Of a DNA stretch of 64,000 nt, positions 7,327 through 9,113 are shown piece by piece. The notes beneath the pieces were generated by a model. The model saw only the letters and a list, made by a program, of their open reading frames with translations. It made no database searches and was not told the origin of the DNA. The DNA is from a bacterium (GTDB lineage: Bacteria; UBA8248; JACPRG01; G963555815), in NCBI GenBank assembly GCA_965261595.1, contig CBDHDG010000007.1, positions 416,001-480,000 on the forward strand. The letters run 5' to 3'. The position numbers were made by a program, and so were the translations under genes. Position 1 is the first letter of the stretch. Each line of letters starts with the position of its first letter.

Positions 7327-7928
7327 CATTGCTCCAAACTGTCCGAAGAAAACGCTTGCATTCACGGGGGCGTCCATACACGGCTATACTGACTGGCCAA
7401 CTCCAGCATCCGGATCACCAGTTGTGCCTCTTCCTTGGGGAATCTGTCGGACTCTTCGCTGGGTGGATCTGGCCTGTCCCAACACGCGGCAGGCCCGACG
7501 CTCACAGACTCGCTCAGGCCCGAACCGCTCTCTGACCCATACCACGGATCCTCTCCGCTTCGCCGGCGCCTGGAAGTTTCCCGAGGAGACTTCCTTCAAA
7601 ATCTGGTTGTCCAGCGACAGGTCCGCCACCAGCTTCTTCAGCCGGCCATTCTCCTTGTCCAGCGACTTCAGACGCTTGGCCTGATCCATCCTCAGACCCC
7701 CGTACTCCTTCCTCCACCGGTAGTCGGTCTGCTCGGTTACCCCGACCGGCTTGCACACCTGGACCACCGTCTTCCCCTGGGACTGGGCCACTTCCGCCTC
7801 TCGCAGCTTGATGACGATCTGTTCCGCTGTAAACCGCTTCCTGGCCAGCCTTCCCCTCCTTCCGAAAATCCAGGAATACTCCTTTATCAACTGGACTCGT
7901 TTGAAGGGGGCAGCGACTGTCTTCGATG

Positions 7929-8879
7929 TTAAGCCACTATCGCACTGGGCTGCCATGGTTGCCCGGTTCGAACCATGGCATTGAGGATGACGAGCAACTT
8001 TCGCATGCATGCTACCAGGGCGACCTTCGGAGATTTTCCAGCTGACCTAAGGCGCTGGTAAAAACGGCGAATCACCACGTTCCTTCGCGTCGCCACCAAG
8101 GCCGCCAACTACAGGGCGCGACGGACTGTCGACCGACCTCCTCAAACACTTCGGCGACCCCGCAGGCTCCCACTGTCTCGATTGATGGGAGCTACTCCCA
8201 CCAGGCTGGCGACCTCCTTTCGGCAAAGGTGCCCCAACTCGGGAAGCTCAGCTATGAGGGTTCGGGAGACCACCTGGCCGATGCCCGGAACCGATCGCAG
8301 CAAATCTTCCTTCTCCCGCCAAATGGGACTGTTGCGGATGATTGTGGTCATTTGCACGTCCAGGTCCGCAAGGGCCTTCTGCAACCAATTGATGTGCGAC
8401 CGGACGCTCGCCCGAAGGGCCCTGTCCTGGGTCCGGCTCAGGCGGTTTTTCTCCGCTGTGATCATCCCGCCTAGCTGGCGCCGTCGGGCAATCAGCTCGG
8501 CCAGCAGACGGCTTAATGCATCGGTCACCGTCCGAACGGCCGGCTTCACCGCCTCGCCAAATCGTGCAATGACTGCGGCGTCAATGCGGTCCGTCTTGGC
8601 CAACCGACCCGTCGCCCGGGCAAAGTCCCGAATCTGCCGAGGATTCACCACCGCTACCGGAAGACCTGCGTTCGACAACGTGGCAGCAGCAAATACTTCC
8701 ACCTTCCCCGTGGCCTCCAAAACCACAACCCCCACAGGCAGGCTCTTGAGCCGGCCCATCAGGTCCTCCAGACCCGCTAGGTCATGACCGAAAGACCAGA
8801 CCTCTCCACAGGGCAACACGTGTACATCCAGACGACTTTTGCAGACATCAATTCCCACGTAGACTGGCTCAGACTTCAT
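7929..8879 (-). pseudogene. IS110 DEDD recombinase with two in-frame nonsense codons
   Basis: GIDVCK, LEATG, KTDRIDA, SVPGIG, RDSG; frame continues through TGA (8142) and a TAG to [18 protein letters not shown]. Confidence 0.9.
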
Positions 8880-8884
8880 CTCCC

Positions 8885-9015
8885 AAACCCTTCCTTTTAC
8901 ATTCGGGCTCACCATGGCCCAGGCGACTGTTCGGGTTGCGGAGACACAAGAGCGGGGAGCCCAGCTGCCCCACGGTCTCAACCGACCCAGGTCACGACGG
9001 TCTCCCGCCCCCTTC
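8885..9015 (-). ncRNA. Putative bridge RNA of the IS110 element (boundaries approximate)
   Basis: Target-loop guides TGACCT and GGGGCAG; donor-loop guides ACAGTCGC and GTAAAAG; each pair flanks a hairpin. Confidence 0.85.
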
Positions 9016-9113
9016 TCATCCCCACAGACTTCAAGGACCTAGATACCGAAGACAGCCTACCCCTTCCTACCAACTCAGAAACAAGATAAAAGGTCAGGGT
9101 AGCTTTATTCACA

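Follow-up and report, generated by a model that had tools for sequence, protein, structure and literature searches.

IS110-A splits the left terminal repeat of an IS3-family element

A stretch of 64,000 nt from a bacterial genome assembly (GCA_965261595.1, contig CBDHDG010000007.1, positions 416,001 to 480,000 of the forward strand), referred to below as the window, was analyzed around an insertion sequence (IS) that we named IS110-A. IS110-A is located within the left terminal repeat of an IS3-family element, and a second IS110-family element, IS110-B, unrelated to IS110-A, occupies the orfB gene of the same IS3 copy (Table 1). A first-pass annotation had proposed that IS110-A carries a bridge RNA programmed against the tip of the IS3 repeat; its feature coordinates were all correct when the sequence was reread. 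Sequences of IS110-A and its junctions are given 5' to 3' on the minus strand.

Table 1. Features of the nested IS locus, with positions in the window. A2, structural alignment of left ends; R1, covariance model.
Feature	Position	Strand	Basis
IS110-A, IS110-group insertion sequence, 1,179 bp (one CT core copy counted)	7912..9090	-	ends match conserved family ends
CT core, left junction	9091..9092	-	sequence
CT core, right junction	7912..7913	-	sequence
Outer 6 bp of IS3 left repeat (TGACCT), cut off by the insertion	9091..9096	-	identical to first 6 bp of repeat at 5292
IS110 recombinase pseudogene, 316 codons, stops TGA 8144-8142 and TAG 8111-8109	7932..8879	-	Pfam
Non-coding left end carrying the putative bridge RNA, 211 nt	8880..9090	-	no family open reading frame; aligns with left ends of 52 relatives
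Putative bridge RNA core, target-binding and donor-binding loops	8882..9016	-	covariance model R1
Target-loop outer stem, 5' strand	9000..9012	-	A2 columns 79-91 pair with 139-153
Left target guide UGACCU, same sense as target left half plus core	8989..8994	-	geometry as in the IS621 passages of PMC11208160
Target-loop inner hairpin GGUC...GACC (8987-8984 / 8977-8974)	8974..8987	-	A2 columns 105-108 / 121-124
Right target guide GGGGCAG, complementary to CTGCCCC	8965..8971	-	sequence
Target-loop outer stem, 3' strand	8948..8960	-	A2 covariation
Left donor guide ACAGUCGC (DNA ACAGTCGC), equal to last 8 nt of right end before core T	8923..8930	-	sequence and family covariation
Donor-loop inner hairpin GGGC...GCCC	8905..8920	-	A2 columns 209-212 / 232-235
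Right donor guide GUAAAAG, complementary to CTTTTA(T), core plus left end	8894..8900	-	sequence and family covariation
Donor-loop outer stem, 3' strand GGGU, pairs with ACCC 8936-8933	8887..8890	-	A2 columns 193-197 / 253-257
-35-like TTAACA in right end, overlapping TAA stop	7927..7932	-	family position
-10-like TATCTT in left end	9083..9088	-	joined to -35 only in excised circle
IS3-family (IS407-like) host, remainder	5292..7911	-	Pfam HTH_Tnp_1, HTH_21, rve, rve_3
IS3 host orfA (HTH_Tnp_1)	7869-7387	-	Pfam
IS3 host orfB fragments (HTH_21, rve, rve_3)	6027-5763, 5820-5329	-	split by IS110-B, frameshifted
Unoccupied 11-bp target in right inverted repeat of host IS3	5292..5302	+	only exact match elsewhere in window
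IS110-B, inside IS3 orfB	6028..7379 (ends to about 2 bp)	+	Pfam

The first bases of IS110-A are TTTATCTTG, read from 9090, and its last bases are ACAGTCG-CT (7920-7912), beyond which the right flank continues as GCCCCC from 7911. The IS3 repeat is split six bases in, as TGAC-CT / IS110-A / (CT)GCCCCC. With the insert removed, the two ends of the host IS3 share their first 12 bases and have the common tip TGACCTGCCCCC; the left repeat resumes after the insert as GCCCCCTTCAAACGAGTCCA, and the other repeat, at 5292, reads TGACCTGCCCCCAAGAACGAGACCA. The identical empty site that had been noted at 5292 was indeed present as an exact copy of the 11-bp target, TGACCTGCCCC. The host IS3 has the layout of its family, orfA followed by orfB with repeats starting TG, and its assignment to the IS407 subgroup is made on the repeat tip only. 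The tip is printed, as TGACCTGCCCCC(T), for IS407A of Burkholderia mallei (Table 2 of PMC2877748) and for ISPa32 of Pseudomonas aeruginosa (in a table of PMC7378034), and is therefore conserved in one IS3 branch across phyla.

The gene of IS110-A encodes the Pfam domains DEDD_Tnp_IS110 (1.2e-21) and Transposase_20 (3.2e-15), and both nonsense codons reported in the first-pass annotation were located in it. P0001, an intact protein 96% identical to that of IS110-A, has W246 and Y257 where IS110-A has TGA and TAG, and 12 further substitutions separate the two. The candidate DEDD residues D11, E55, D97, and D100 are located in invariant or at least 90% columns of a protein alignment (A1), all upstream of the first stop. 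The domains, end layout, shared core dinucleotide, and fixed site and orientation of IS110-A are those of the IS110 group; its recombinase gene is not intact, and IS110-A is a pseudogene of a family member. Both IS110-A and the host IS3 are fossils, the former by its two nonsense codons and the latter by the frameshifts in orfB and the insertion of IS110-B.

The family of IS110-A is very large, with at least 8,000 matches in a protein search, and the best named among the matches listed were IS110 family transposases of Nitrospira and Nitrospinota. A genome collection scanned with an 18-protein alignment gave 78 loci (designated by L numbers) at 52-60% identity, mostly in metagenome-assembled genomes of Chloroflexota, Nitrospirota, Gemmatimonadota, and Alphaproteobacteria. 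Element ends were read directly from multi-copy genomes and then searched for as motifs in the other copies. A recognizable end was wanting in 6 copies, and the dropped ones that were named are L007, L023r, L029, L046, and L072. The conserved ends of the relatives are CT followed by TGTATCTTG on the left and AAGACAGTTG followed by CT on the right; the corresponding versions in IS110-A are CT followed by TTTATCTTG and AAGACAGTCG followed by CT. The left-junction CT was present in nearly all relatives (71 with both ends found), the exceptions being L006, L023, L043, and L048, and every right-end match closed with CT. IS110-A has 211 nt of non-coding sequence 5' of its gene, 17 nt past the stop codon, and CT on both sides, and its ends (TTTATC... 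and ...AGTCGCT) are not inverted repeats.

The left end of IS110-A carries a putative bridge RNA

We aligned 53 left ends by structure (A2), omitting the indel-rich L023, L035, L039, L047, and L059 as well as duplicates. Four conserved helices were found in A2, namely an outer stem and an inner hairpin for each of the target and donor loops. Paired cells made up 97.1% of A2 versus 35-47% (maximum 47.2%) after the 3' partners had been slid by 1-3 columns. Double-sided changes were seen in 19 of 25 pairs, and the observed values were reached by none of 500 shuffles. In the target loop, compensatory changes occurred in 10 of the 11 pairs in the main helix of the outer stem, and 98.1% of cells were paired in the inner hairpin. 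The corresponding values for the donor loop were 98.6% of cells paired in the inner hairpin and 94.6% in the outer stem, with double changes in 3/5 pairs of the latter.

A covariance model, R1, was then built from 51 relatives with the window copy and L065 excluded. The full length of R1 matched the left end of IS110-A, with a score of 91.3 bits (E 9.6e-18), and the next-best match within the window reached 14 bits (E 0.12). Because the structure covaries and R1 recognized the window copy that had been excluded from it, the assignment of this left end to a putative bridge RNA of the IS621 type is supported.

Among Rfam families, the sole match at E <= 1 over 5200-9300 was HOTTIP_1 (E 0.85), which we rejected as a chance match to a long non-coding RNA.

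Target guides agree with the flanks of the elements

In the IS621 bridge RNA as described in PMC11208160, each loop binds the bottom strand through its 5' side and the top strand through its 3' side, and every one of the four pairings includes the core. With this geometry, the left and right target guides of IS110-A match TGAC-CT-GCCCC exactly around the GGTC/GACC hairpin, just as the first-pass annotation had it. The matches are 6 nt on the left and 7 nt on the right, which are the modal values across the family, and left and right target guides in bridge geometry arose by chance in 82 of 300,000 shuffles of the 211-nt left end. The left-guide match was also said to end where the IS3 ends, and this was so in all three insertions with these guides. 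It comprises six contiguous bases in the window and in L068, and eight in L065, where two flank bases match by chance. The guides span the constant part of the site, from the tip to base 11, and cover nothing outside the IS3, where the sequence varies between insertion sites.

Guides were further read from fixed alignment columns and scored against the flanks of each element, for 74 insertions with 49 distinct guide pairs. At least 7 contiguous right-guide matches were found with the element's own flanks in 51/74 insertions versus 24/2,352 mismatched pairings of guide and flank. For the left guide, at least 6 contiguous matches were found in 40/74 insertions versus 38/2,352 mismatched pairings. 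As read from these columns, the guide-flank agreement across the family is strong but not universal.

Several relatives had unusual junctions or arrangements. Odd junctions were seen in L001 and L032. The right target guide of L001 (element at about 3790-5010), GCCGCAG, mismatches the bases beside the right end and matches CTGCGGC 14 nt deeper in the flank. A repeat of the left-target sequence is also present in this flank, an arrangement that might have come from duplication of a half-site or from recombination of the element at a half-matching one. In L032 (about 3785-3845), a 22-bp direct repeat, TTGACATGTATGGGATAATCCT, runs from the left flank into the beginning of the left end, with TGTATCT between the copies. 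The left guide of L032 has no match to the flank at the boundary as placed, and the end of an IS21 istB gene lies about 100 bp upstream. L009 holds two diverged IS110 copies in tandem (4001-4915 and 5218-6132, 1,217 bp apart), 57.5% and 56.9% identical to P0001, each in a like target, ..ATGC-CT-CAG...

Donor guides follow the element's own ends

The donor guides were likewise found where they had been predicted. The left donor guide matches the right end of IS110-A at 8/8 bases, and the right donor guide matches the donor CTTTTAT with 6/7 Watson-Crick pairs, the seventh being the G.T wobble already noted. Such a pair of donor guides was obtained by chance in 2 of 300,000 left-end shuffles. Across the family, the left donor guide was identical to the right-end 8-mer of its own element in 42/53 elements. 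The right end differed from ACAGTTGC in 23 elements, and the same change was present in the left donor guide of 17 of these. The right donor guide, written as its DNA complement, is CTTGCA against the donor CTTGTA in 32/53 elements. IS110-A alone has CTTTTA against CTTTTA, the C-to-A change in its right donor guide matching the G-to-T change in its left end as a compensatory pair.

In the circular form of IS621, a promoter is rebuilt across the junction of the right and left ends (PMC11208160). The hexamers TTAACA and TATCTT, annotated before as a junction promoter with a 17-bp spacer, are present as sequence at their given positions, and the predicted spacer would be composed of 15 nt of right end and 2 nt of left end. 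Across the joined ends of the relatives, TTGACN was located exactly 17 bp upstream of a TATCTT-like hexamer in 34/53.

We considered whether the left end could be a mere 5' untranslated leader without a guide RNA, its matches to the flanks being leftovers of end formation. The bridge RNA is predicted here from DNA sequence, and two results fit a leader. The single-sequence fold of the left end was not unusually stable (minimum free energy -75.2 kcal/mol versus a shuffle mean of -77.7, z = +0.52), and Rfam gave no match at the gathering threshold in the whole window. A leader would not account for the compensatory base-pair changes in four helices, for the covariation of guides, in 49 distinct pairs, with flanks and ends, or for an architecture identical to that of the experimentally proven IS621 RNA, and we regard this explanation as scarcely credible.

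The same site is used by a distant relative

Homologs carrying the same guides were sought among the 78 loci, and L065 and L068 were the only ones. These are two copies of one element of Candidatus Lucifugimonas marina JH545, with a protein 55% identical to P0001, guides AATGACCT and GGGGCAG, and flanks TGAC-CT / ... / (CT)GCCCCC. L065 is placed in a left IS3 repeat because an IS3 orfA in the same orientation starts 50 bp past the right end of the IS110. L068 is placed in a right repeat because its IS3 is on the other strand, with orfB ending 27 bp from the IS110. The distal repeats of the two IS3 copies, read as the right and the left repeat respectively, are intact and unoccupied. In the window, L065, and L068, the insertion has the same position and orientation, after TGAC-CT with the IS110 left end outside. 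The 11-mer itself was absent from 76/78 fetched loci, L065 and L068 being the only ones to hold it. What the target loop specifies is the outermost stretch, 11 bp long, of a repeat of the IS3 family. The first-pass reading also withstood the check proposed with it, as the two further elements carrying these guides both occupied IS3 repeats, at an identical position.

These findings bear on whether the association with IS3 is incidental, such that the 11-bp word would be recognized anywhere and IS3 ends would merely be its commonest carriers. Recognition does span 11 bp only, the guides match nothing beyond the tip, with the left guide stopping at the IS3 boundary, and other members use short motifs outside repeated elements (for example AACGGC-CT-GCTAG in L013 and L029r, whose flanks have only this short motif in common). 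By chance, a given 11-mer would turn up about once in 4 Mb on each strand; nevertheless, 3/3 insertions with these guides were in IS3 repeats, left and right, and the word is the conserved IS407-type repeat tip in distant phyla. We therefore find an incidental association very improbable, though its difference from the explanation we prefer, in which the IS3 repeat tip is the natural site, concerns mechanism less than emphasis.

For phylogeny, 107 proteins were placed in a maximum-likelihood tree by a quick IQ-TREE search (SH-aLRT support only, midpoint root). IS110-A grouped with P0001 and P0002 (support 100) within a clade of 31 rows (support 99), and the Lucifugimonas element branched apart on a long branch. 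At least two switches in the 'IS3-repeat' label were required by supported branches, and other targets were found in the genome-derived neighbors of the window clade (L042, L050, L070, L072/74, and the L028 group). Two acquisitions of the target are therefore favored, on a tree whose long branch is unreliable, whose root is arbitrary, and in which the nearest relatives are proteins only. The broader reading, that the tip was adopted at least twice independently in one IS110 clade, with IS407-like elements as a landing pad and IS3 as preferred prey, is one that we offer tentatively and consider doubtful as a whole.

The flanks of the 74 insertions were also surveyed with Pfam (253 open reading frames, with the reverse-strand copies L023r, L029r, and L036r excluded). 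Transposase domains were found within 1 kb of L004, L013, L015, L019, L020, L023, L032, L047, L053, L054, L061, L062, L064, and L076. In a plasmid collection, the left end gave no blastn match. A tblastn search with P0001 gave 2,858 plasmid records, the best at 49-55% identity; the TGACCT target was not found in records H2 and H4, the 2 of 2,858 that were examined, of which L080 was judged from its model match with its flanks unread.

Proposed mechanism and effect on the IS3 host

Together, these data indicate that IS110-A is very probably an ordinary IS110-group element that naturally inserts into the outermost 11 bp (TGAC-CT-GCCCC) of IS407-like IS3 repeats. Starting from the anatomy, the RNA scaffold, the covariation of guides with flanks and ends, and the repeated use of the site, we infer the following course for transcription and recombination. 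By homology with IS621, IS110-A would excise as a circle, in which the joined right and left ends would form a sigma-70-like promoter, TTAACA-17-TATCTT. Transcription of the left end from this promoter would yield a bridge RNA about 135-200 nt long. The first loop of the RNA would hold the IS3 repeat tip, the second would pair with the element's own junction through ACAGUCGC and GUAAAAG, and the DEDD/serine recombinase would exchange strands at the common CT. Since the guides run from the outer edge of the repeat toward its interior, the left end is expected to lie outside with the gene pointing into the IS3. Either IS3 repeat could serve as a landing site. The likely advantage to the element would be a selfish one, as such a site is multi-copy, selectively neutral, and carried between genomes with the IS3.

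Several observations weigh against this interpretation. The recombinase gene is broken, so that this copy of IS110-A cannot act on its own. TTAACA is one base off the TTGAC of the family, and neither the fold stability nor Rfam singled out the left end, as given above. Fewer than 7 contiguous right-guide matches were found in 23/74 family insertions, and zero contiguous left-guide matches in 11/74 under strict scoring; part of this shortfall is attributed to the extraction of guides from fixed columns, and part of the zero left-match cases to guides that pair with the first core base only. Only three insertions, from two lineages, carry these guides, and the closest relatives (P0001-P0030; 96%, 79%, and 72% identity) are known as proteins alone. 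At the ends of the host IS3, matching target-site duplications were absent (..ccgc at 5288-5291 versus gggt.. at 9097-9100); the IS407A examples of PMC2877748 show 4-bp target duplications. The lack of matching flanking repeats suggests a later rearrangement, by recombination or deletion at one end, or decay of the host IS3.

The insertion places the terminal TGACCT 1.18 kb away from the remaining bases of the repeat, and the inner junction reads ..GTCGCTGCCCCC instead of TGACCTGCCCCC. An IS3 end so split should no longer be usable. The earlier suggestion that the insertion blocks transposition of the host is thus plausible. For this IS3 copy a block would be one of several, since this copy is also dead through IS110-B in orfB and the frameshifts. 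The order of insertion events in the nested locus cannot be read from the sequence.

A block of this kind raises the question of whether the targeting is an adaptive anti-transposon device, in which the IS110 element or the host was selected because insertion into the repeat tip silences IS3/IS407 elements. Besides the separation of TGACCT from the rest of the repeat, such a device would fit the presence, in a single IS3, of two unrelated IS110-family elements, located at the repeat and at the conserved OrfB motif, respectively, and the use of the same 11-bp site in two distant IS110 lineages. It would also fit ISEc21, which targets a conserved codon block of IS3-family transposase genes (PMC11187229). 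Other features point the opposite way. A single repeat was occupied in all three cases and the other target was empty. Same-clade members target many unrelated sequences, often beside ordinary genes, indicating an opportunistic choice of repeated sites, and an abundant 1,407-bp IS3-family element with at least 4 copies in the window is untouched. As excision of the IS621 type is scarless according to the account of it in PMC11208160, a blocked IS3 end would be restored on excision and the block would be reversible. We therefore judge an adaptive device improbable. Disabling of IS3 is more probably a side effect of using a site that is repeated, neutral, and horizontally mobile than a function, because one repeat only was occupied (3/3), the clade uses many sites, and the abundant IS3 of the window was spared.

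Comparison with known systems

The mechanism considered here is already known from IS621, and the targeting of repeats or genes of other transposons by IS110-family elements is known as well. IS110-A resembles IS621 as described in PMC11208160 (Durrant et al. 2024) in having a recombinase with DEDD RuvC-like and Tnp domains, a long non-coding left end, target- and donor-binding loops, a CT core in all pairings, and a putative junction promoter. It differs in belonging to another clade with its own conserved ends, the comparison with IS621 being made by published description. The effective left target guide is 6 nt in IS110-A versus 8-9 nt in the IS621 analysis, and the natural target of IS110-A is the tip of a transposon repeat, whereas the passages of PMC11208160 on targets mention repetitive elements generally.

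The closest named IS found was ISMno7 of Methylobacterium nodulans (RefSeq 'IS110-like element ISMno7 family transposase'), 54% identical to P0001. Its ends are ..CT followed by TGTATCTC and ..ACAGCCG followed by CT, R1 scores it at 93.8 bits (E 1.1e-18), and its left donor guide follows its own right end (CAGCCGC). ISMno7 differs from IS110-A in its guides and flanks (..GTGAGC-CT-CAGTCG), and no IS3 adjoined it within the 1.5 kb examined.

IS1383 reportedly integrates into the inverted repeats of IS1384 (Muller et al. 2001), and IS4321/IS5075 are said to target the terminal repeats of Tn21-family transposons (Partridge & Hall 2003). As with IS110-A, these would be elements of the IS110/IS1111 family using the terminal repeat of another transposable element as their site. 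The hosts differ, being IS1384 and the Tn21 family versus the IS407-type IS3 tip for IS110-A, and IS4321/IS5075 are of the IS1111 group, with the guide RNA downstream of the gene. ISEc21 (Siddiquee et al. 2024) has an upstream non-coding region and a target traced to conserved codons of IS3-family transposase genes, as set out in the part of PMC11187229 on this element; judged from that part, IS110-B, inside an OrfB motif, is a closer parallel to it than IS110-A. What IS110-A adds is the use of the IS407-type tip as a target by a clade of the IS110 group whose ends are TGTATC.../...CAGTTG, seen in two distant lineages. A search of the full-text literature gave no report of an IS110-family element that targets the IS407-type tip, with most subscription journals, ISfinder, and the 2024 supplementary target tables, where such a target may be listed, outside its scope.

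The results leave mechanistic knowledge unchanged. They add a well-documented natural target to the catalog of bridge RNAs, a short word at IS407-like ends in distant phyla. They also supply a compact body of family data, covering ends, scaffold, four guides, and candidate junction promoter, in which natural variation lets the guide rules be read. For annotation, an IS110 of this clade beside 'TGACCT' marks a split IS3 repeat, which automatic pipelines would call a truncated IS3. If convergent targeting were true, IS407-like elements would be a cross-phylum landing pad for hyperparasitic RNA-guided elements and a natural case of convergent guide programming, and would inform the question of how such elements select landing sites that are both safe and mobile. 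Taken with IS110-B in the OrfB motif, the same reading hints at IS3-family elements as preferred prey of the IS110 family, whose insertions may measurably curb IS3 activity.

IS110-B and other elements of the window

IS110-B has an intact gene of 334 amino acids (6110-7111), a downstream non-coding region of 265 nt, and perfect 11-bp subterminal inverted repeats, TGGACGCCCCC, at 6037-6047 and 7366-7376. It is assigned to the IS1111 type because of these subterminal inverted repeats and the long downstream non-coding region. The insertion of IS110-B separates the codons for R and Y in the conserved OrfB motif ..QYSR/YGYRRI. In a search for guide-like matches, its non-coding regions and flanks shared five 7-mers versus about two expected.

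A fragment of an IS1595-family transposase, comprising the zinc ribbon and the first half of the DDE domain, is located at 9154-9753 (+), about 60 bp outside the IS3 end. The host IS3 may itself have landed in or beside another IS.

The 11-mer with at most one mismatch was not enriched in the window (3 matches versus 2.0 expected). The one-mismatch matches (TGACCTGCACC) are located at 50851 and 52615 (-), 1,764 bp apart, in repeats of a gene for a 1,561-amino-acid protein (50276-54958) with at least 9 CARDB domains; they are coding repeats and not IS ends.

The abundant IS3-family element of 1,407 bp is different from the IS3 host of IS110-A. Its copies, at least 4 at more than 99% identity, are located at 660-2025, 10815-12221, 23181-24586, and 45350-46756, and a partial tandem copy (46755-47977) abuts the last of these. 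Its tips, TGGTCCCCCGC and TGGACCGCCCC, do not contain the target of IS110-A. The open reading frames of 431 amino acids opposite this element had no Pfam match and look spurious. A 5'-truncated relic of a related IS3-family element is located at 55224-56146 (-) and retains an intact-looking rve/rve_3 open reading frame (55418-56146). It would not be a target of IS110-A because its tip, TGACCCACCCCC, is without the CT core.

The gene content of the window is environmental and IS-rich. Among the 56 open reading frames scanned, no drug-resistance or virulence family was matched in Pfam at E <= 1e-5. Two large genes lie in an IS-rich stretch, at 12223-14799 and 27232-29631, one encoding SIR2-like, NB-ARC, and TPR domains and the other TPR and CHAT domains, and both architectures are often seen in defense systems.

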